32,000 nt of DNA from Acidothermus cellulolyticus 11B. Its GTDB lineage: Bacteria; Actinomycetota; Actinomycetes; Acidothermales; Acidothermaceae. The notes beneath the pieces are model-generated. The model saw nothing but the letters and a program-made list of their open reading frames with translations, ran no database searches and had not been told where the DNA came from. Made by a program: the position numbers and the translations under genes. The stretch is from positions 870,001-902,000 of the forward strand of contig NC_008578.1 of assembly GCF_000015025.1 (NCBI RefSeq), read 5' to 3'. Of this stretch, positions 19,907 through 32,000 are shown piece after piece (position 1 is the first letter of the stretch; every line of letters starts with the position of its first letter).

Positions 19907-21874
19907 GTGGCCGGCCGTATCCGGGACGCCGATATCGCCCGCGTCCGTGAGCTCTCCCCGATCGCGGACGTCGTCGCCGAGTACGTCACGCTGCGCAACG
20001 CCGGAGGCGGTTCGCTCAAGGGACTCTGCCCGTTTCACGACGAGCGGACGCCGTCGTTTCACGTCACACCCGCCCGGGGGCTGTGGCATTGTTTCGGCTG
20101 CGGCGAAGGCGGCGACGTCATCACGTTCGTGGAGAAAATCGAGCACCTGTCGTTTTTTGAGGCCGTTGAACGGTTGGCGGCCCGGGTGGGTTATGAGCTG
20201 CACTACGAGCAGGGCCCGGCATCGCTGCGCGGATCGGGCGGGCAACGGCAGCGGCTGTTGGCGGCGAATACAGCGGCGGCTGCGTTCTTCGCCGCGCAGT
20301 TGAGTGATGCGCCGGCCGCCCGGCGTTTTCTCACCGACCGTGGTTTTGACGATGCGACGATTTCCCGGTACGGGCTCGGATTCTCACCGGCCCGGTGGGA
20401 TGAGCTGGTCCGGCATTTGCGGCGGGAGGGGTTCTCCGACGACGACCTGGTGACGGCGGGTCTGGCGATCCGGGGAAACCGAGGGCTGGTCGACCGGTTC
20501 CGCGGCCGGCTGATGTGGCCGATCCGCGATATCACCGGGGACATTGTGGGTTTCGGCGCCCGTAAACTCGACCCCGCCGACGACGGCCCCAAATATTTGA
20601 ACACCCCGGAGACACCGCTGTTCAAAAAGAGCAGCGTGCTGTACGGGATCGACCTGGCGAAGAAGGACATCGCGCGGATTCGGCAGGCGGTCATCGTCGA
20701 GGGGTACACCGATGTGATGGCGTGTCATCTCGCCGGTGTGACGACGGCGGTGGCCACGTGCGGCACGGCGTTCGGTGAGGAGCACGTGCGGGTGTTGCGC
20801 CGTTTGCTGCTCGATACGTCGGAATTCGGCGGGGAGGTCATTTTCACCTTTGACGCTGACGCCGCCGGGCGGAAGGCGGCGATGCGTGCGTTCGAGTCGG
20901 ACCAGAAATTCGTCGCGCACACGTTCATCGCCGTTGCGCCGGACGGCATGGATCCGTGCGACCTGCGGCTGGCGCGGGGTGACGCCGCGGTGCGGGACAT
21001 GATTGCACGCCGGCAGCCGCTGTTCGAATTCGCCATCCGCAGCCTGCTGCGGGATTTCAATCTGGACCTCCCCGAAGGCCGGGTGGCTGCGCTGGAGCGG
21101 ACAATTCCGCTCGTCGCCCGCATCAAAGATGTGTCGCTTCGCGATGAATACGCGCGGCGGTTGGCCGGCTGGGTCGGGGTGGGCGATGAATTGGCGGTGG
21201 TCCGCCGGGTCCGCCGGGAGGCCGGCGGGTCGGCGCGCGGGCCCCGTCCGGGAGCGCCGGGACTGCGGGGGGCAGCGGCGGATCCACGCGGGACGGCGTC
21301 CGGCCCGCGGGGAACGGCGTCCGGCCCGCGGGGAACGGCGTCCGGCCCGCGACCGCCGGAGGCGGGTCCGGCGGCGGACCCGGCTGCCGCGCCGGACCCA
21401 CGGGATCCCGCGTTGCAGGTCGAACGTGAGGCGCTCAAACTTGCACTGCAACGCCCGGCCTTGCTCGGCCCGGCTTTCGACGCGCTGGACGCGGCCGCGT
21501 TCCGTTCGCCGGCGTACGCCGAGGTGCGCGACGCGATTGAAAAAGCAGGGGGGACGGCGACCACCGCGGGGGGTGACGGCTGGGTGGCCGCCGTGCTGGA
21601 CGCCGCACCGGACGACCGGGTCCGCCGGCTGGTCCGCGAACTGCTGGTCGAGCCGCCTTTCGTCGCCGGCGAGCCCGACGTCCGGTATGCCGCTGCGCAG
21701 GTGGCCCGGCTGCGGGTTCGCCTGCTGGATCGGGAGATTGCCGAGCTGAAGTCGCGGTTGCAGCGCATCAATCCGGTGGAGCAACCGACCGAGCACACCA
21801 GGCTCTTTGCCGAGCTGGTGCAGCTGGAGAAGCGCCGCCGCGATGACCTGGAGAACTACCTCGGCGTGGGTTAA
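19907..21874 (+). CDS. dnaG: DNA primase
   Basis: It has the zinc finger CPFHDERTPSFHV...WHCFGCGEGGDV, the Toprim segment IVEGYTDVM, and a C-terminal helicase-interaction region. It is 655 aa long. Confidence 0.93.
   Translation: MAGRIRDADIARVRELSPIADVVAEYVTLRNAGGGSLKGLCPFHDERTPSFHVTPARGLWHCFGCGEGGDVITFVEKIEHLSFFEAVERLAARVGYELHYEQGPASLRGSGGQRQRLLAANTAAAAFFAAQLSDAPAARRFLTDRGFDDATISRYGLGFSPARWDELVRHLRREGFSDDDLVTAGLAIRGNRGLVDRFRGRLMWPIRDITGDIVGFGARKLDPADDGPKYLNTPETPLFKKSSVLYGIDLAKKDIARIRQAVIVEGYTDVMACHLAGVTTAVATCGTAFGEEHVRVLRRLLLDTSEFGGEVIFTFDADAAGRKAAMRAFESDQKFVAHTFIAVAPDGMDPCDLRLARGDAAVRDMIARRQPLFEFAIRSLLRDFNLDLPEGRVAALERTIPLVARIKDVSLRDEYARRLAGWVGVGDELAVVRRVRREAGGSARGPRPGAPGLRGAAADPRGTASGPRGTASGPRGTASGPRPPEAGPAADPAAAPDPRDPALQVEREALKLALQRPALLGPAFDALDAAAFRSPAYAEVRDAIEKAGGTATTAGGDGWVAAVLDAAPDDRVRRLVRELLVEPPFVAGEPDVRYAAAQVARLRVRLLDREIAELKSRLQRINPVEQPTEHTRLFAELVQLEKRRRDDLENYLGVG
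21284..21346 (+). repeat. In-frame 21-bp tandem repeat x3 inside dnaG (PRGTASG x3)
   Basis: Read directly: CCACGCGGGACGGCGTCCGGC, then CCGCGGGGAACGGCGTCCGGC twice. Confidence 0.9.
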
Positions 21875-23191: not shown

Positions 23192-23342
23192 CGACGCGCG
23201 GCCAGGAGGGACGACCGGCTGCCACCGCCGACCCGCTGGCATCCGAGCGCGAGGCGGTCGGCGTCCCCTCGGTGTCCGTGGCGCGGGATACGCTACGCTG
23301 ACGTGGACGTCGGCCGCGCGGTGTTAGCCGTGGGCGGGTCGG

Positions 23343-23418
23343 TCCCGCGTAGCTCAATTGGCAGAGCGTCCGGCTGTTAACCGGTAGGTTGCAGGTTCGA
23401 GTCCTGCCGCGGGAGCCA
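23343..23418 (+). tRNA. tRNA-Asn (anticodon GTT), CCA encoded
   Basis: I folded the cloverleaf by hand. The acceptor stem is TCCCGCG/CGCGGGA and the D arm is GCTC-AATTGGCA-GAGC. The anticodon loop is CTGTTAA. The T arm is GCAGG-TTCGAGT-CCTGC. The discriminator is G, followed by CCA. Confidence 0.9.
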
Positions 23419-23538
23419 TGGGGGTGTTGCTGGGGTGTGGATTGCCGGATTGGTCACGGTTGGGTTTCCTCAGGTTGGTGGTTGGGTCTAGCGGCTGGTG
23501 CTGATCGTCCGCTAGGGTGCCCTGCTGTGATCTCATCG

Positions 23539-24243
23539 ATGCGCCGGGCACGTCGGCCGTGGCTGTGGCCGTTAGTGGCGGCCTGCGGCGCACTGGTCGC
23601 GGGGGGTGCACTGGCAGGCTGTGATGCGCGGAGTCGACCGAGTGTCCTGGAACCAGCGGTGTCGGCGTCGCCGGGTGTTCCGGTGCCGCGGGTGACGGGG
23701 TTGGCGTCGGGGTCGAGTGCAGGGTCGGCGTCGGCTTCGCCTGTGTCGCCGGGCGGTTCCACGCCGACTATGACGGCTACGGTTAGTCCGTCGGCGACGC
23801 CGTGGCATGACACGCAGCGGGAAGCGTTCTACCCGGAGGCTGCCGCGAAAGAAGACGTCGCGATCCACGTGATCGAGCAATTCTTTGCTGGTGTCAATTA
23901 TGAGCTGGATGCGAATGATGAGACGTTGCTCCGTGGCGTTGTCCGTCCGGATTGTGAAAACTGTCTGAGAGCGATGGAAGGTCTACACGCGCTTCATAAG
24001 AATGGACAGGTCAGTCGTGGTGGGCATTATCACCTGGTGAGTGTTGACCAGATTTGGCCGGTCGCCCCGTCGGTGGTCGAGGTCCGCGTGACCGGCTCGC
24101 GGGATCCGGGTGAGCTATTGTCGGCTTCCGGTCAGTTGCTGAATTCGTATCCGGTTCCACCCAACGCGTATTTGCAGTTCTTCGTCGATGTTAAGGCGTC
24201 ACCTCCGGTGATCCTCCAGTACGCGGCAGTGGGGCCCGCATGA
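23539..24243 (+). CDS. Putative lipoprotein (signal peptide with lipobox LAGC, Ser/Pro-rich linker, CxxC-containing globular domain)
   Basis: It starts MRRARRPWLWPLVAACGALVAGGALAGC and contains a DCENC motif. The ATG at 23539 was chosen because the longer ORF overlaps the tRNA. The gene looks AT-richer than the core genome. Confidence 0.65.
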   Translation: MRRARRPWLWPLVAACGALVAGGALAGCDARSRPSVLEPAVSASPGVPVPRVTGLASGSSAGSASASPVSPGGSTPTMTATVSPSATPWHDTQREAFYPEAAAKEDVAIHVIEQFFAGVNYELDANDETLLRGVVRPDCENCLRAMEGLHALHKNGQVSRGGHYHLVSVDQIWPVAPSVVEVRVTGSRDPGELLSASGQLLNSYPVPPNAYLQFFVDVKASPPVILQYAAVGPA

Positions 24244-25130
24244 CCCGCGCAACTGTCAGGTTTCTTGCTCTTACACTCGCCGTTCTTCCGGCTGTCTTAT
24301 CCATTATGCCGCCGGCTACTGCGGACGAAAGCGGTACATTGTGTCGGAGCCAAGGACTGGAGCCGGTCTATTGTCCGGTGCCGGATGGCGACGGTTACCT
24401 GTATGTCTATGATTTTAGCGATCGCTTTACCCGAAACGAGAAGCCAATAACCGGCGGCACGGCGGAAAAGAAGTACGAGTTTGCTTTGACGTTTGGGTGT
24501 GCGGTGGCGAATCCGAATCGGCCGCCGGAGGAGGTGGTGTGTGTGGAGGCGCGGGAGTGGTGTGTGGGTCGGGGGTTGGCGGGGGTGCATGAGGTGATCT
24601 GGGCGCGGGAGGTGTGGCCGGTGGCGGGGGAGTGGCATGTGGTGGCGGATCGGTGTGTGGCGGGGGATGGTCCGGGGGTTGACCGGGAGGTGTTGGACGC
24701 GGTGGGGGAGGTGGCGCGGTTGCGGTTGCCGCGCCTGGTGCCGGTGGTGCAACCACGAGGGGTTGTGGTGGTGAATTTGCCGGTGGTGGTGTCGGTGGTG
24801 GATCCGGGGGTGCAGCGGTTGGTGGTGGACCGTCCGGTGCGGGGGGTGTTGGTGGCCTCGCCGCGGTTTGTGTGGACGTTTGATGACGGGTCGGTGGCCG
24901 AGGGTGCGGGCCGGGTGTTTGACGGGGTGGATCCGCGGGTGGCACCGGACCATTACGTGTCGCACACCTACCGGGCGGCCCAGGCGGATGGGTGGGTGCG
25001 GCTTACCGTGCACTGGGAGGCGGTGTTCACCACCGGTGGGATCACCTACCCGATCGACCCGATCGACGTCACCACCACCATCCACTACCCCGTCCACCAA
25101 GCTCGCGCCGTCCTCGTCACCACTCCATAA
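24240..25130 (+). CDS. Putative secreted protein (signal peptide, Cys-containing N-terminal part, Val/Gly/Trp-rich C-terminal part)
   Basis: The ATG overlaps the upstream stop (ATGA). The signal-like N-terminus is MTRATVRFLALTLAVLPAVLSIMPPATA. I recognised no family. The + strand is strongly G-rich. Confidence 0.6.
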   Translation: MTRATVRFLALTLAVLPAVLSIMPPATADESGTLCRSQGLEPVYCPVPDGDGYLYVYDFSDRFTRNEKPITGGTAEKKYEFALTFGCAVANPNRPPEEVVCVEAREWCVGRGLAGVHEVIWAREVWPVAGEWHVVADRCVAGDGPGVDREVLDAVGEVARLRLPRLVPVVQPRGVVVVNLPVVVSVVDPGVQRLVVDRPVRGVLVASPRFVWTFDDGSVAEGAGRVFDGVDPRVAPDHYVSHTYRAAQADGWVRLTVHWEAVFTTGGITYPIDPIDVTTTIHYPVHQARAVLVTTP

Positions 25131-25200
25131 ACCCGCGTAACGCACGCTCCGCACGCTGTCGTGGACGTCGGTCGCGCGGTGGTAGCCGTGGGCGGGTCGG

Positions 25201-25275
25201 TCCCGCGTAGCTCAATTGGCAGAGCGTCCGACTGTTAACGGTAGGTTGCAGATTCGAGTCCTGCCCCGGAAGCCA
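25201..25275 (+). pseudogene. Degenerate second copy of tRNA-Asn (GTT), probably non-functional
   Basis: It matches the 23343-23418 copy apart from 5 differences, and all of them disrupt pairing. One is a substitution and one a 1-nt deletion in the anticodon stem. One is a T-stem mismatch. Two are acceptor-stem mismatches (TCCCGCG versus CCCGGAA). About 48 bp of upstream flank is also duplicated (25153-25200 versus 23295-23342). Confidence 0.65.
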
Positions 25276-25709: not shown

Positions 25710-25892
25710 ATGGATGAGACACCGGGCAATGTCCTGACCATCGAGGAGCTGTCCACGTATCTGAAGATCCCGAAATCGACGCTCTACAAGCTCGTCCGGG
25801 AAGGCAAGGTGCCGTGCCAGAAGATTGGGCGCCATTGGCGCTTCCGGAAGGAAGCCATTGACCGCTGGTTGGACGATGCGGACGGCGAGTAG
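25710..25892 (+). CDS. Excisionase-family (HTH_17/MerR-like) small DNA-binding protein
   Basis: It is 60 aa long. The sequence LTIEELSTYLKIPKSTLYKLVREGKVPCQKIGRHWRFRKEAIDRWL is the canonical excisionase-family helix-turn-helix signature. It lies 41 bp upstream of the BrxF-like gene on the same strand. Confidence 0.8.
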   Translation: MDETPGNVLTIEELSTYLKIPKSTLYKLVREGKVPCQKIGRHWRFRKEAIDRWLDDADGE

Positions 25893-25933: not shown

Positions 25934-26410
25934 GTGGCGGAACCGTTGGCGGATCAGGTCCTGCGCGAAGTCGATAGGGCGCGCGAGCTGTATCATCGCC
26001 TGATCCTTATGGTAGGACCGTCGGGAAGCGGGAAGACGCACGCACTGCAGCAGGTATCGGCCTCGACCTCCGCACCGCTCGTCAACGTCAATCTTGAGCT
26101 GTCTCGCCGGATGCTGGACCTAACCGAACGCCAACGGGCTCTGCAGGCTCCAAGGCTCTTGGGCGAAATCGTGGGCGAAGCCACAGGCGAGCTGGTTTTG
26201 CTTGACAACATCGAGATTCTTTTCGATGTCCACCTGAAGCAGGATCCTTTGCGTCTGCTTCAGGGATTGTCCCGGAACAAGACGGTCGTGGCCGCCTGGA
26301 ACGGATCCATCGTGGATGGTCACATGACCTACGCCGTCCCGGACCACCCCGAATACCGCCGCTACCCGATTCGGGATTTTCTGGTGGTAAGTCTCTCGGT
26401 AACAACATGA
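25934..26410 (+). CDS. brxF: BrxF-like small P-loop protein (BREX type 3)
   Basis: It is 158 aa with Walker A GPSGSGKT (26015-26038) and Walker B-like LVLLDNIE. Its size and sequence ([21 protein letters not shown]...[17 protein letters not shown]) match my recollection of BrxF. The GTG start follows AGGAGA. Confidence 0.7.
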
Positions 26411-26447: not shown

Positions 26448-29400
26448 ATGAGGTATGCAGACCTGATCCAGTTCGAGCCGATCGAGTCCGTCGTCCAGCT
26501 TCGGGATGCCGATGAGGTCACGAGCGCGAGACAGTTGGTCTGCACTTATGTCATCTCCGACGAGATGGCCGAGAAGCTGACCGGCCTTGTGATCCCCCAG
26601 CTTCAGTTCGACCAGCCCGCCGATAACAAGGGGCTGCTTGTCGTGGGCAACTACGGTACCGGTAAGTCACATCTCATGTCGGTGATCTCCAGCATCGCCG
26701 AGCACGCGGACCTGCTGTCCGCCCTGGACAACGCTCAGGTGGCACAAGCAGCAAGAGCGATCGCAGGCAAGTTCAAGGTGGTCCGCACCGAGATCGGGTA
26801 CACCACTATGTCGCTGCGGGACATCCTCGTCGGCGAGCTGGAGGAGCACCTGGCCGCCATGGGCGTGACCTACACCTTCCCACACGCCAGCCAGGTCCCC
26901 AACAACAAGCGGGCATTCGAGGAGATGATGGCTGCGTTTCATGCCGAGTTCCCGGACCATGGCCTGCTCTTGGTTGTGGATGAGCTCCTGGACTATCTCC
27001 GTGGCCGCCCGGACCAGGCGCTGATCCTCGACCTTAACTTCCTCCGTGAGGTGGGCGAGGTCTGCAAGGACCTGCGCTTCCGCTTCATGGCAGGTGTGCA
27101 GGAGGCCATTTTCGACAGCCCTCGTCTCGCCTTCGCGGCCGAAAGCATCCGCCGGGTCAAGGACCGCTTCGAACAGATCCTTATCGCCCGAAAGGACGTC
27201 AAGTTCGTAGTCGCCGAGCGCCTGCTCAGGAAGACTGGCGAACAGCAGGCCAAGATCCGCGAGCACCTTACACCGTTCGCCAAGTTCTACGGCCACATGA
27301 ACGAACGGATGGACGAGTTCGTCCGCCTCTTCCCGGTCCATCCCGACTACATCGACACCTTCGAGCGCATCACGGCGGTGGAGAAGCGCGAGGTGCTCAA
27401 GACCATCTCTCTGGCCATGAAGACGCTGCACGATCAGGAGGTGCCGGAGGACCGGCCCGGTCTCATTGCGTACGACAGTTACTGGACTTCCTTGCGCGAG
27501 AACCCCTCCTTCCGCGCCGTCCCGGACATCAAGGCGGTGATCGATTGTAGCCAGGTGCTGGAGTCCCGGATCGAGCAGGCCTTCACCCGGCCGGCGTACA
27601 AGCCCATGGCGCTCCGCATCATCCACGCGCTCTCGGTCCACCGGCTGACGACCGGAGACATCTACGCACCTCTGGGCGCCACGGCTGAGGAGCTGCGCGA
27701 CGCGCTCTGTCTTTACCAGCCCGGCATCGAAGAATTAGGTGGAGACCCGGCCGACGACCTCCTTTCCCAGGTGGAAACGGTCCTGCGCGAGATCCACAGG
27801 ACGGTCAGCGGCCAGTTCATCTCCTCCAATCCGGACAACCGGCAGTATTACCTCGATCTCAAGAAGACCGACGACTTCGACGCGCTTATCGAGAAGCGCG
27901 CCGAGAGCCTCGATGCCTCCCAGCTCGACCGCTATTACTACGAGGCTTTGAAACGGGTCATGGAGTGTACCGACCAGACCTACGTTACCGGCTACAAGAT
28001 CTGGCAGCACGAGCTGGAATGGCTGGAGCACAAGGCGGCAAGACAGGGATATCTCTTCTTCGGCGCTCCCAACGAGCGCTCGACGGCCGTACCGCCCCGT
28101 GATTTCTACCTCTACTTCATTCAGCCGTTCGATCCGCCGCACTTCAAAGACGAGAAGAAGGCGGATGAAGTGTTCCTTCGCCTGACCAACAGGGACGATG
28201 AGTTTCGGATCGCGCTGACGAACTATGCCGCGGCGCTGGAGCTCGCGTCCACCTCGAGCGGCCACGCCAAAGCCACCTACGAGTCCAAGGCCACCGGATT
28301 CCTGCGGGACCTGGTGGGCTGGCTGCAGAAGCACATGACCGATGCCTTCGAAGTGACCCACCAGGGACGCACCAAGTCGCTGGTCGAATGGACCAAGGGC
28401 AAGTCCATCCGCGAGCTGTCCGGGATCGCTTCCCACGAGCGGATCAACTTTCGCGACCTGGTGAACACCATCGCCGGCATCGTCCTGTCCGCACACTTTC
28501 AGGACCAGGCGCGCGAGTATCCCTACTTCTCGGTGCTCATCACAGGCCAAAACCGCGAGCAGGCGGCACAGGACGCCCTGCGCGCTATCGCCGGACAGAA
28601 TCGCACCAAGCAGGCGATCGCCGTGCTCGACGCCCTGGAGCTCCTCGATGGCGAGCGGCTCGATCCGTACCGCTCCAAGTACGCGAAGCACATCCTGGAC
28701 ATCCTCAAGAAGAAGGGGCATGGCCAGGTGGTCAACCGCTCGGAGCTGATCCAGGAGGTCTATGGTGTCGAGTACTTCGCACCGGACAAGGGCTACCGTC
28801 TGGAGCCCGAATGGGCTGTCGTGGTCCTGGCCGCGCTGGTCTACTCCGGTGACCTGGTGCTCTCGATTTCCGGCGAGAAGTTCGACGCCACCAGGCTGCC
28901 GCAACTGGCTGCGACGATCATAGACGAGCTGGTCCCCTTCAAGCACATCGAGAGGCCCAAAGACTGGAACCTGCCCGCGCTCAAGGCACTCTTCGAATTT
29001 CTCGGGCTGACGCCGGGCATGGCGCAGCTCGTCACCCAAGGCAAGGAAGAGCCGGTCCAGCAACTCCAGAAAGCCATCTCCGCGGTGGTGGAGAAGCTGG
29101 TCCTAGTCCAACAGAGCCTGCAAAGCGGCCTAGCGTTCTGGGGCAGGAACCTGCTCGCCGAGGAGGAAGCAGCCCAGCTGCGCGACCGGCTCGACCAGAC
29201 CAAGTCTTTTCTTGAATCCCTCCAGGCCTACTCCTCGCCCGGCAAGCTCAAGAACTTCCGCTATGACGCCCAGGAGGTGAAGCGTCACGAAGACGGCCTG
29301 AAGGCCGTCTCGGAGATCGAGTCCCTGCAGGAGCTGGTGAGCGACCTGGGCCGGGTGGCCTCCTATCTCTCCACCGCCGAGGCGGTGCTGCCCACGGACC

Positions 29401-30179
29401 ACGAGTGGGTAGAGCGGATGAAGGCGACGCGAGATGCGGTGCTCGCGCAAGTGTCGGACCCGGCCCAGCGCACGTCCAGCGCTTTCCGCCAGCAGGCTCT
29501 GCGCAAACTCGCTGGCCTCAAGAAGTCCTACGTGCAAGCCTATCTCGCCATGCACGCCCGAGCCCGACTGGGCGTGAACGAGGACAGGCGCAAGAGCGCG
29601 TTGATGGGCGACGAACGGCTCAAGACCCTCTCGAGGCTCTCCACCATCGACCTGATGCCGCGCCAGCACCTGACCGATTTCCAGAACCGCCTGGCTGGCC
29701 TGAAGAGCTGCTTCGCGCTCACCGAGCAGGACCTCGACGCATCGCCGGTCTGCCCGCATTGCTCCTTCCGGCCCGGAACGGAGGGCGTGGGCGCACCTGC
29801 CGCGACCGTGCTCGAGCACCTGGACACGGAGCTGGACAAGCTCCTCGACGACTGGACCCAGACGCTGCTGGCCAACCTGGAGGACCCAACCACCCGCGGC
29901 AACCTCGACCTGCTCAAGCCCGAGCCCAGGAAGCTGGTGGATGCCTTCCTCAAGGAACGCAAGTTGCCCGACGAGCTGGGCAAGGATTTTATCCACGCCC
30001 TGCAGGAGGTGCTCTCCGGGCTGGTCAAGGTCGCCGTGAAAACCGAGGATCTGCGCGCAGCCCTTCTCAAGAGTGGCTCACCGGCGACGCCGGCGGACAT
30101 GAAGAAACGCTTCGATGAATACCTTGACGAACTCACCAAGGGCCATGAGCCTGGCAAGGTGAGAATTGTGCTGGAGTGA
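26448..30179 (+). CDS. brxC: Large BrxC-like P-loop protein (DUF6079-type, BREX type 3)
   Basis: It is 1243 aa with Walker [10 protein letters not shown] (26646-26669) and Walker [13 protein letters not shown]. The N-terminus [22 protein letters not shown] matches the family I recall following BrxF. A CPHC motif lies near aa 1100. Confidence 0.7.
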
Positions 30180-31585
30180 CCGTGAATCGGAATGAACTCG
30201 AACAAATCGCCCAACAGGGTGAATCCGAAACCATCGAGTTCAAGAAATCCACAGCACAGATCCGGCGGGCGATGGAAACACTCTGCGGCATGCTCAACGG
30301 CCATGGCGGCCGTGTGCTGTTCGGTATTACACCCCAGGGGCAGATCGTTGGGCAGACGGTTTCTGACAAAACTTTACGGGAGGTAGTCGATCAGCCGAGG
30401 CGTTTCGAACCTCCGGGCACCGTTGCCCAAACACGCATTGACCTCGGTGATGACAAGGAGTTGCTGGTGCTGGAAGCACAGCCGGATCCTACCCGGCGCC
30501 CCTATATCTTTGACGGTCGGCCTTATCAGCGGGTGGGTTCCACCACCTCCGTGATGCCCCAGGAAACCTACCACCGGCTTCTGGCAGAACGTCCCGACAG
30601 TCGCACCCGCTGGGAAACGCTTCGAGCCGAGGGATATGGTGTGGCCGACCTCGACCAAGAGGAAATCCTGCGCACAGTGCGCCTTGGTGTTGCCGCCGGC
30701 CGCTTGCCGGAATCAACGGGCGGCGACATTCCCGATATCCTGCATCGGTTGGAATTGCTCAAGGGCGGTCGTCTGAACAACGCAGCCATCGTTCTATTCG
30801 GCACCTGCTTCCTCCCTGACTATCCTCAATGCCAGCTGCGTATGGCCCGCTTCCGTGGGGTGGACAAATCGGAGTTCCTCGACCAGCGCCAGATCGAAGG
30901 GCACGCCTTTGCCCTGCTTGACGAGGCCATGCTGTTTTTGCGCCGCCATCTTCCCGTGGCGGGCCGGGTCGTCCCCGGGCTGTTCGAGCGTGAGGACGAG
31001 CCATTGTTTCCGCTGGAGGTCCTGCGTGAGGCGCTGGTCAATGCCTTCTGCCACCGGGACTACACCATCGCAGGCGGGGCGGTCAGCCTGGCCATCTACG
31101 ACGATCGCCTGGAGATTTGGAGCGACGGGACCTTGCCATCCGGTCTCACCCCGGAGGATCTCAAGCGAGACCACACGTCAAAACCGAGCAATCCGTTGAT
31201 CGCCAAGGTGTTCTACCTTCGCGGCGTCATCGAGCGCTGGGGACGCGGGACACAAAAGATCGTCGAGCTGTGTGTCAAGGCTGGGCACCCAGAGCCAGAA
31301 TTCGGCGAGCAGGCCGGTAGCGTCTGGGTGCGCTTCGTACCGAGCGGTTACATTGCCCCGCATCGCGTAGCGCATGACCTTACCGAGCGACAGCGGGAGG
31401 TCCTGCAAATCACTGCTCATCATGGCCCGATCCCTCTTCGAGAGATCATGCAGCAGATGGCAAGCCCGCCGGCCTCCGCTACGGTCCGGGATGATCTCTA
31501 CCACCTGAAGCGTCTGGAATTGGTCGATTCCGCTGGACATGGCCGAGGGGCCGTGTGGCGGCTGCGCAGAGAGGAAAGCTCATGA
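30176..31585 (+). CDS. COG2865-type protein: AlbA_2 (Schlafen-like) DNA-binding domain + HATPase_c_4 domain + C-terminal winged-helix
   Basis: [10 protein letters not shown] and the [12 protein letters not shown] core are typical of AlbA_2. [13 protein letters not shown] is typical of HATPase_c_4. The tail REVLQI...[10 protein letters not shown] is HTH-like. The GTG start overlaps the brxC stop (GTGA). Confidence 0.8.
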
Positions 31586-31767
31586 GCACCGGAATAAGCT
31601 GGCATCGGCTGGAGAATAAGCGGGAATGGCCAGCGTATTTCCAGCTTATTCGCATGAACCATCGGGAAGCCTTTCCATATGGGCATCTTATGGAGAACCC
31701 ATATAAGGCGAAAATAAGTCGGCTCCATTCCGCCCTATCCCTCCCAAGAGGAGCGAAATTCACATGA
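31582..31767 (+). CDS. 61-codon ORF coupled at both ends (ATGA/ATGA); it may instead be a structured non-coding linker
   Basis: Its ATG overlaps the upstream stop, and its stop overlaps the downstream ATG. The segment is noticeably AT-richer and contains inverted repeats, so coding status is uncertain. Confidence 0.3.
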   Translation: MSTGISWHRLENKREWPAYFQLIRMNHREAFPYGHLMENPYKAKISRLHSALSLPRGAKFT

Positions 31768-32000
31768 ACCGGCAAAACAACCTTTTTGAAAACCAGGAGG
31801 CCAAAACCAGGGACCAGGAACCTGTCGAATGCCTTGGCAAGACCTTCGACTCCGACGAGGCGCGGCGGCAGCACTTCCTCCGCCTCTTGCGCGAAGGGCT
31901 GGAGGAACTCCACGCCAAGCTCGGCGGTGTGCCCTTCACCACGGTGGAAGACGCCGTGGAACGGATGAAGTCGGTCGAGAAATGGCCGATGGGAGGTGAG
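31764..32000 (+). CDS. N-terminus (79 codons, open at the window end) of a probable large DNA methyltransferase (PglXI-like)
   Basis: It is absent from the ORF track because no stop falls inside the window. My translation is MNRQNNLFENQEAKTRDQEPVECLGKTFDSDEARRQHFLRLLREGLEEL.... GAGGAG lies 10 nt upstream. The CLG.TF...EARR..F motif resembles N-termini of large N4/N6 methylases as I recall them. No catalytic motif is visible yet. Confidence 0.45.
   Translation, partial: MNRQNNLFENQEAKTRDQEPVECLGKTFDSDEARRQHFLRLLREGLEELHAKLGGVPFTTVEDAVERMKSVEKWPMGGE

Follow-up and report, generated by a model that had tools for sequence, protein, structure and literature searches.

Schlafen-ATPase-winged helix genes at the brxC-pglXI junction of BREX type 3 loci, seen from Acidothermus cellulolyticus: an accessory putative tRNase accompanied by a 3′ repeat array that covaries with its predicted recognition helix

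What is a Schlafen-type nuclease gene doing inside a phage-defence operon, and what might its DNA-binding tail recognise? The question is raised by a 32,000-nt stretch of the Acidothermus cellulolyticus 11B chromosome (NC_008578.1, positions 870,001 to 902,000 of the forward strand; hereafter the window, in whose numbering all positions are given). Here, a bacteriophage exclusion (BREX) type 3 locus harbours, between brxC and the methyltransferase gene pglXI, a 467-aa gene on the + strand (30182..31585) that combines a Schlafen domain, a GHKL-type ATPase domain and a C-terminal winged helix-turn-helix (wHTH). On balance we lean, if only slightly, towards the product being a back-up tRNase effector that stands beside BREX, with its wHTH binding an array of short repeats located immediately 3′ of its own gene. 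That BREX can contain a Schlafen gene has been reported before (NAR 2026, Nat Commun 2026) and is in itself nothing new; the 3′ repeat array, cognate to variants of the recognition helix, appears to be an unreported element.

Prokaryotic Schlafens have been classified in PMC13056530, where the Schlafen-HisKinase-HTH (helix-turn-helix) class accounts for 19.2%. The pairing of Schlafen and GHKL domains has been named 'Schlatpase' in a preprint (10.64898/2026.05.29.728809), which counts 103,533 Schlafen proteins in prokaryotes, 58.6% of them with this pair and most of these also bearing a C-terminal HTH. The same work describes RzAgo, a Schlafen-Argonaute fusion in which ATP binding leads to tetramerisation and then to tRNA cleavage, and whose D32A and E314A mutants lose defence. 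An E17/D22/K24 triad cleaves tRNA loops in CbCash (PMC13462974), and that study also reports a BREX-associated Schlafen-ATPase-DNA-binding cluster. In at least 1017 taxa, according to PMC12839542, genes for Schlafen-RNase/minimal-His-kinase/wHTH proteins stand in tight linkage with the core loci of BREX and BREX-related systems; these genes are read there as back-up suicidal effectors. The pSlfn-HisKinase-HTH class of PMC13056530 corresponds to these back-up effectors of PMC12839542, and the window gene is a member, with the same domain order and association; as far as the text searched in both papers goes, the association is catalogued, and 3′ arrays and wHTH specificity variants are not described. 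An earlier sequence-only reading of the window assigned the gene to COG2865 and took the role of that family in defence islands to be unestablished, a view that PMC12839542, PMC13462974 and 10.64898/2026.05.29.728809 have since rendered out of date. Literature searches on repeats or iterons in connection with Schlafen or HATPase_c_4 proteins yielded no relevant account.

In the window, the array is built on a unit of approximately 11 bp, and its proximal cluster spans 31592..31651. Unit U1, GAATAAGCTGG (31592-31602, + strand), starts 7 nt past the stop codon and is followed by U2, GAATAAGCGGG (31614-31624, + strand), by U3, a complement copy with one mismatch (31629-31639), and by U4, CCAGCTTATTC (31641-31651), again in the complement; the direct units are set 22 nt apart and the inverted units 12 nt. 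Two degenerate units are located distally, one of them, AAATAAGTCGG, at 31712-31722 (+ strand) and the other, CCGCCCTATCC, the complement of GGATAGGGCGG, at 31730-31740, just 5′ of the pglXI ribosome-binding site. With at most one mismatch allowed, the 32-kb window contains 11 matches, five of which fall within 130 nt of the spacer, and none of 100 shuffles reached 11. A search for the motif upstream of brxF and elsewhere in the window gave nothing beyond chance, and no second operator was found. Among relatives, the sole invariant block of the spacer is ATTCCGCC.TAT, 25-35 nt before the pglXI start.

Beyond the window, nearly every homologue, in any context, displays a short tandem array beginning -15 to +40 nt around the stop codon, which itself often lies within the first array unit. 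Using Tandem Repeats Finder (score >=45, period 8-26, within -15 to +120 nt of the stop), arrays were recorded for 58 of 79 homologues, as opposed to 18 of 673 control gene 3′ ends from the same loci (Fisher p ~2e-52). Periods of 10-12 nt predominate (47/69), with 20-23 nt in a further 20/69. Unit sequences vary by clade whilst a GAAT-type core is kept, examples being (GAATAAGGCAG)x5 in L006, (CGGGCTTATTC)x21 in L055, (ACTCCAATTC)x4 in L049 and (GAATTGGCCGA)x5 in L080 (loci are cited by L number throughout). Isolate genomes carry arrays too, including those of Rubrobacter, Inmirania and Propionispora, as well as a Rhodothermus plasmid with (A/G)AATTGGGCAA x5, and the arrays are therefore not assembly artefacts. 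A plasmid search recovered relatives only at <=36% identity, the Rhodothermus copy having a clear array and an Arcobacter copy none; a Hymenobacter plasmid relative has none directly after its stop codon, with two tandem 11-nt copies approximately 120 nt downstream. Short repeats past the stop are also found for more distant Schlafen-ATPase subfamilies occupying the same position in BREX loci.

The array sequence follows the protein's C-terminus and not its other parts. Across otherwise very similar proteins, the C-terminal 70 residues fall into discrete variants, most of whose differences lie in the predicted recognition helix (residues 432-444; nt 31475-31513, + strand, from the AlphaFold2 model). 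Where protein bodies are >=80% identical and the wHTHs >=60%, array k-mer similarity is 0.67 (43 pairs), falling to 0.03 (22 pairs) where bodies are equally similar and the wHTHs are <60% identical. With identity over the rest of the wHTH fixed at 55-75%, the proportion of pairs sharing a repeated 7-mer climbs from 0.25 to 0.74 as recognition-helix identity rises. The pairings of predicted helix and repeat are ATVRDD with GAATAAGCTGG, RRLREE or RTLRDD with GAATAAGGCGG, RTLRED with GAATAAGGCAG, RMIQED with GAATA(A/G)CGAAAC, RTLQxEL with GAATAGCGCAG, EWx(I/V)K with GAAT(T/G)GGAGT and EWE(I/V)K with GAATTGGAGT. Type-B units read GAATAACGAAAC and type-C units GAATAAGGCGG, the latter also being the expected partner of helix variant RRLREELLHLKK. 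When helix type was predicted from the array for held-out metagenomic loci, the call was correct in two cases out of three (L091/L099 and L106); it missed for L159, a locus matching another pairing already observed. Diverged wHTHs with only the EWx(I/V)K helix motif in common share ACTCC(A/C)AT-type units, and near-perfect arrays persist in lineages just 45-50% identical in protein, both of which argue that the covariation is functional rather than a product of linkage.

With regard to the protein itself, the sequence-only reading had proposed a gene at 30176-31585 with AlbA_2 and HATPase_c_4 domains; a single long open reading frame (ORF) is present on the + strand at 30176/30182-31585, and Pfam confirms the domains. 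SLFN_AlbA_2 (PF04326) is matched at residues 16-127 of the 469-aa reading (E 6e-17, 62.7 bits against a cut-off of 25.3), and PF13749 (HATPase_c_4) follows it in the same polypeptide at residues 300-387 of that reading. In the 467-aa protein, the Schlafen/AlbA_2 nuclease domain covers residues 14-125 (30221..30556, + strand) with the motif E-x4-E-x-K formed by E14, E19 and K21, whilst the GHKL ATP-binding domain occupies approximately residues 278-385 (31013..31336, + strand; Pfam E 4e-24). The C-terminal winged helix, residues 400-462 (31379..31567, + strand), has a weak Pfam match and is drawn from the AlphaFold2 model and Foldseek, the model placing helices at 402-414, 419-425 and 432-444 along with a beta wing. 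An alignment of 37 homologues, 64-92% identical, shows that within the motif G-E14-S-E-T-I-E19-F-K21 positions E14 and E19 never vary, with K21 conserved to at least 90%; the GHKL motifs are also invariant, namely E283 and N287 of the N-box, D315-G316 and G354-R-G356. The segment that the sequence-only reading singled out for mutation is this very N-box.

The AlphaFold2 pLDDT is 83-94 in the Schlafen domain and 85-89 in the winged helix, with weak linkers. A comparison with Schlafen folds, suggested in the same earlier reading, supports the assignment, as Foldseek matches the Schlafen domain to SLFN12, SLFN13, SLFN11, SLFN14 and SAMD9 tRNase domains (E 2e-4 to 4e-3). The top match of the search is DIP2311 (3LMM; E 5e-17); histidine kinases match the GHKL part, and ArsR, MarR and BlaI winged helices the C-terminus. 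NCBIfam returned no named family for the Schlafen-ATPase-wHTH protein, and the PADLOC pAgo and SIR2-PNTD models match it weakly over residues 201-370. Membership of either system was rejected, as these partial matches reflect the shared Schlatpase region. The closest homologue, 92% identical, is from Rubrobacter naiadicus (L001) and sits at the same brxC-pglXI position, and proteins 64-92% identical are spread over many phyla. By its predicted domains, the protein is a putative Schlafen-type RNA-cutting enzyme fused to a likely ATP switch and DNA-binding tail.

Where such genes reside was assessed in two surveys. The first comprised 80 species-level genome loci with relatives 45-87% identical, in which BREX type 3 was present at 9 of the 15 loci at >=72% identity, some being decayed remnants (L017, L043), and at none of the 65 below that value. 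At least 11 loci fall in type I restriction-modification (RM) operons, typically in the order hsdM-hsdS-(other cargo)-X-hsdR, where X is the homologue; a 75% identical copy lies directly after hsdR (L011), three loci are near DUF1156 methyltransferases, and many have no recognisable defence neighbour, a 66% identical copy in L006 being found among metabolic genes. Homologues 50-75% identical belong to type I RM loci or to unrelated contexts. The enrichment in BREX or RM surroundings on which the sequence-only reading had staked its proposal is borne out by the nine BREX-3 loci amongst the 15 closest and by the at least 11 distant type I RM loci. Given the homologues outside BREX, a specific BREX-protein partnership is not required.

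The second survey approached the question from the BREX side, with 80 metagenomic BREX-3 loci retrieved via the BrxC C-terminus (L088-L167), of which 68 had evaluable junctions. At 11 of these, pglXI directly follows brxC, often as TAGgagcggctgATG, and 57 complete ORFs are inserted at the brxC-pglXI junction. Schlafen genes make up 32 of the 57 inserts (30 with HATPase_c_4), their products being 23-85% identical to the window protein. The remainder include YhcG-type PD-(D/E)XK (5-6), HD (4), Fic (3), PLD (3), metallophosphatase (2) and 23S-IVP (2) proteins, and also ABC-ATPases. Because the other occupants are PD-(D/E)XK, HD, Fic, PLD or similar proteins, the junction is a variable slot for effector-type cargo, with the Schlafen-ATPase its commonest occupant. 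Since the gene is missing from 36 of the 68 evaluable BREX-3 junctions, 11 of them without any insert, the Schlafen-ATPase protein is accessory and not part of the BREX core.

How might such an accessory protein work? By analogy with characterised relatives, ATP bound to the GHKL domain would drive oligomerisation and so activate the Schlafen site, which would then cut tRNA, stop translation and abort the infection. The Schlafen-ATPase would in this way form a second line beside the BREX core, much as PrrC may be viewed in a type I restriction locus. PrrC is an NTPase-regulated tRNA nuclease whose gene lies inside the EcoprrI type I RM operon, and which is restrained by the restriction enzyme. 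The two are alike in having an effector gene within an RM operon (relatives of the window gene occupy hsdM-hsdS-X-hsdR positions) and in the back-up abortive logic. They differ in that their folds are unrelated, PrrC possessing an ABC-type ATPase and its own nuclease domain, and in that members of the window gene's family are also found with neither RM nor BREX genes nearby. Of the three roles that the sequence-only reading had offered, sensor, regulator or second effector, it is the last that is best supported.

As for the wHTH, the covariation suggests that each would bind one unit of approximately 11 bp, or about one protomer per helical turn, such that several protomers could sit in a row along a single face of the DNA, immediately 3′ of the gene that encodes them. 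More speculatively, the DNA-bound state may control the nuclease, most likely by holding it inactive, and/or may control read-through into pglXI. A further-reaching proposal, which we hold to be rather doubtful, is that the array serves the nuclease as a DNA scaffold, or 'DNA antitoxin', encoded in cis. New protein would load by its winged helix onto the repeats at a spacing of approximately 11 bp, the resulting filament would keep the Schlafen sites apart, and loss of DNA binding would free the protein to become an ATP-bound, active tRNase. Possible triggers would be degradation of host DNA, competing phage DNA, or DNA-mimic anti-restriction proteins, a kind able to block type I RM as well as BREX. 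If this were true, the helix/array variants would be orthogonal specificity pairs, and several cassettes could coexist.

Likenesses to described systems bear on parts of this scheme. The RzAgo Schlatpase (10.64898/2026.05.29.728809) has the same SLFN_AlbA_2 (PF04326) and GHKL (PF13749) pair, and the counterparts of its D32 and E314 are kept in the window protein (E19/E14 and E283, the latter matched by N-box position and not by alignment). Unlike RzAgo, however, the window protein has no Argonaute core or guide RNA, a winged helix and DNA array taking the place of the sensor; the inactive state of RzAgo is an RNA-guided filament, whilst DNA-templated assembly of the window protein is hypothetical. 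The motif E14/E19/K21 corresponds to E17/D22/K24 of CbCash (PMC13462974). DIP2311 of Corynebacterium diphtheriae is the best match in the PDB by both structure and sequence and shares the three-part architecture, although it is only 15-17% identical by structural alignment, has a longer C-terminal region and is an uncharacterised structural-genomics entry. For the array, the nearest parallels are iteron-type protein-DNA filaments such as those at the plasmid partition centromeres of TubR-tubC and ParR-parC, in which a small DNA-binding domain, a winged helix in the case of TubR, occupies tandem repeats of 11-12 bp. The tandem 11-12 bp repeats, with one unit per helical turn, are common to both, whereas the wHTH of the window protein is fused to a nuclease-ATPase, its array is placed 3′ of its own gene, and its binding is predicted.

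Several observations weigh against the effector reading. A literature search found no experiment on this protein or on any BREX-embedded copy, and homologues 66-75% identical are found outside any BREX locus. The AlphaFold2 model is moderate overall (mean pLDDT 74, pTM 0.39), the window array is short and partly degenerate (two direct, two inverted and two weak distal units), and some distant homologues have no array, for example an Arcobacter copy, 27% identical, which overlaps hsdR. The third Schlafen carboxylate of mammalian sites is also absent, being unconserved in the family and replaced by Q52 in the window protein; as the published RzAgo D72A and SLFN11 D252 mutants keep or gain activity, Q52 is no argument for an inactive nuclease. 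Lastly, the array directly adjoins the wHTH codons, and if 3′ ends were exchanged as one block the two would covary without any binding. Taken to its conclusion, this last point would make the repeats recombination scars or cassette-exchange hotspots that bind no protein, with the covariation reduced to co-inheritance. Mosaic genes are indeed present (the 22 pairs with bodies >=80% but wHTHs <60% identical), remnants of other array types are stacked downstream in L001, L008 and L015, and repeat-like elements occur at gene-free brxC-pglXI junctions (L119, L136). Yet neutral DNA would be randomised at 45-50% protein identity, where near-perfect tandem copies persist, divergent wHTHs with the EWx(I/V)K motif share their units, and a period of 10-12 bp, or double this, fits one binding site per helical turn; we consider scars quite unlikely. 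The repeats could also act as RNA, either as a 3′-UTR (untranslated region) hairpin serving as stabiliser or terminator, or as a repeat RNA that neutralises the RNase in the style of type III toxin-antitoxin systems, whose antitoxins are tandem repeat RNAs. Like the RNase gene of ToxIN, the window gene adjoins a short tandem repeat array, in this case in its 3′ UTR, and many arrays of the family end in an inverted copy able to form a hairpin (L029, L032, L066). ToxI repeats, though, are 36 nt long, lie upstream and act as RNA, whilst in this family units of approximately 11 nt are located downstream, in no fixed orientation, and their sequence follows that of a DNA-binding helix. The same duplex motif takes opposite orientations in different clades (GAATAAGCCGG in L020, CCGGCTTATTC in L074), and many arrays are purely direct, without a hairpin (L049, L051, L055, L078). 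The spacer has a fold no more stable than that of shuffled sequence (z -1.3, equalled by 20 of 200 shuffles), has no Rfam match, and contains neither a terminator-like site (GC-rich hairpin and T run, sought between 31585 and 31764) nor a sigma-70 consensus; an RNA element in the spacer was accordingly rejected, and a role as RNA seems very unlikely. The flips in orientation, together with the lack of an Rfam match, excess RNA stability or a terminator, instead point to duplex DNA as the recognised form.

Two other explanations concern the role of the protein. It might be a transcription regulator of the BREX operon, its wHTH setting methyltransferase expression from the repeats and its Schlafen and ATPase parts being sensor or oligomerisation modules. 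The presence of a wHTH, the location of repeats between the gene and the pglXI ribosome-binding site, the invariant ATTCCGCC.TAT block and the frequent database label 'transcriptional regulator' are all in keeping with this, but the array accompanies the gene whatever lies downstream, convergent or unrelated genes included, and the nuclease and ATPase residues are invariant. Moreover, the occupants of this slot elsewhere among BREX-3 loci are nucleases and toxins rather than regulators, and insert-free loci couple pglXI directly to brxC, making a regulator an unlikely explanation. Alternatively, the gene could be a self-contained mobile cassette, an addiction or independent defence module that has settled in a permissive junction with no functional link to BREX. 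This is compatible with the tRNase mechanism and differs from the effector reading solely on BREX dependence. The spread of 64-92% identical proteins across many phyla, the copies among metabolic genes (L006) and after hsdR (L011), the copies that remain whole, or almost so, next to decayed BREX remnants (L017, L043) and the retention of the gene's own array wherever it is located would all suit such a cassette. Set against these are its strong preference for position (32 of 68 BREX-3 junctions, often starting 2-20 nt past the brxC stop), the lack of a promoter consensus of its own and the recurrence of an analogous position in type I RM operons, so that we view independence from BREX as doubtful rather than far-fetched.

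The boundaries of the gene required some revision. According to the sequence-only reading, its GTG start overlaps the brxC stop, its stop overlaps the ATG of the next gene, and it is almost certainly co-translated with the BREX genes. A GTGA does exist at 30176; however, the conserved start is GTG 30182, in frame and 2 nt past the brxC stop, preceded by a Shine-Dalgarno-like GGAG (30173..30176, + strand, read from the sequence) in the last brxC codons with a 5-nt spacer. Homologues are 465-467 aa long with an N-terminus of M/V-N-R-x-E-L, matching this start, and the junction CTGGAGTGAccGTG is kept in L001, L008 and L010; in L009 and L017, brxC ends in TAG, which makes a GTGA overlap impossible, yet the downstream GTG is retained. 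On the basis of homologue lengths and of these TAG-ending relatives, GTG 30182 is preferred and GTG 30176 was ruled out. The gap between brxC and the Schlafen gene is not always tight, reaching 51 nt in L004 and 78 nt in L015; in this lineage the Schlafen-ATPase gene is probably co-translated with brxC, judging from the junction.

At the 3′ end, the ATGA at 31582-31585 opens no conserved gene, only a 61-codon ORF (31582-31767) with ATGA overlaps at both ends, to the Schlafen gene stop and to the pglXI start. This ORF has no match in family profile searches, and between relatives approximately 90% identical the region varies both in sequence and in length, with indels, for which reasons it was discarded as a coupled small gene and is probably not a gene at all. 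The next gene is instead pglXI, with its ATG at 31764 after a 178-nt spacer, and an N-terminal extension of pglXI into that spacer is excluded by an in-frame upstream stop. Of the co-translation proposed earlier, coupling to brxC is hence plausible, whilst there is none to pglXI, from which the gene is separated by this repeat-bearing non-coding spacer.

The surrounding locus is a BREX type 3 operon by profile searches, with BrxF, a DUF6079-type BrxC and PglXI. The P-loop protein gene brxF spans 25934..26410 (NF033453 BREX_3_BrxF E 1.4e-61; PADLOC BrxF E 7e-99), and brxC, encoding 1243 aa, 26448..30179 (Pfam DUF6079 1955 bits; PADLOC BrxC 2164 bits), in agreement with the sequence-only reading of the upstream gene. 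Only the 5′ end of pglXI, its first 78 codons (31764..32000; PADLOC PglXI and MTase_II), is present before the gene exits the window, its N-terminus being 81% identical to PglXI of L001; all three genes are on the + strand. The Rubrobacter naiadicus contig (L001) has the same arrangement, with proteins 86-92% identical, and continues beyond PglXI with a 1414-aa ORF and then BrxHII; L004 carries BrxHII and PglZ. At the head of the island, directly 5′ of brxF, is a 60-aa HTH_17/excisionase-like gene (25710..25892, + strand; Pfam HTH_17 E 9e-19) that resembles MAD1 of the methylation-associated defence system, although its product scores 61.8 bits against NCBIfam MADS1, under the cut-off of 80. 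A homologue is kept upstream of brxF in L001 and L015, and the gene may be an operon regulator.

From position 1 to approximately 25,200 the window is chromosome of 64-72% G+C, including a DnaG-like ORF (19907-21874); past this point G+C drops to approximately 60% and a co-directional gene set starts. A tRNA-Asn gene (23343-23418) stands at the end of the high-G+C stretch, and, together with 48 nt of upstream flank (23295-23418), it is duplicated at 25153-25275, 1858 nt downstream, with 92-95% identity, this second copy being degenerate and without an ARAGORN call. Neither of the two intervening ORFs (23389-24243 and 24240-25130) has a family match. As the lower-G+C BREX island begins directly past the second copy, the arrangement suggests integration at a tRNA-Asn site.

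Other loci of the surveys display further variation. In Inmirania thermothiophila (L004, 3095-6214), a 1039-aa helicase-PLD nuclease (AAA_11/AAA_12/PLDc_2) is encoded between brxF and brxC, and this interval is a second cargo position of the operon. L017 (9286-12831) and L043 (1177-3641) harbour short remnants of brxF, brxC and pglZ or pglXI around a Schlafen-ATPase gene that, compared with the query, is also truncated or frameshifted; both give the impression of decaying BREX-3 loci. Degenerate arrays of other types, for instance type-A units preceded by a type-B-like AATAGCGC unit, follow the current array in L001 (11400-11700), L008 (11390-11560) and L015 (11390-11570), which looks as if successive 3′ modules of wHTH and array had been inserted, leaving older arrays behind.

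Repeats are also seen away from Schlafen genes. Units ACGAATGAAC/ACGAATAGAC, which recur every 10 nt and are accompanied by an inverted copy, are present at BREX-3 junctions with no adjacent Schlafen gene, or upstream of one (L119 5552-5620; L136 7053-7200; L004 9950-10000; and downstream regions of L126, L132 and L142), and may represent either orphaned arrays or a distinct, small repeat element. Small 23S-rRNA-IVP-type genes after brxC in L101 (2125-2660) and L104 (1589-2110) have short GAGTCACGAGTC/GGGTCGCGA-type repeats on both sides, and in L090 (2834-3280) GGTTTCTGGTT-type repeats are instead upstream of such a gene. Units similar to these IVP-flanking repeats, CGCGACCC, lie inside the first pglXI codons of L104 and at the equivalent pglXI-like stretch of L009 and L043. 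A Fic cargo gene in L120 (2640-2730) and L147 (5527-5650) is followed by two copies of an approximately 30-nt unit (…TTAATGGGATCA..AATGGCTAT…), and gene-adjacent repeats are therefore not confined to Schlafen cargo.

With regard to what these findings mean for the family, a repeat array that travels with its gene and a matching HTH offers a cheap and concrete handle on what the HTH recognises, for the arrays name candidate binding sites and suggest an amino-acid-to-base recognition table. The question of the array also bears on how stand-alone Schlafen-ATPases stay silent and then switch on. Finally, the view of the brxC-pglXI junction as a cargo slot matters for predicting which functions BREX loci carry beyond methylation-based exclusion.

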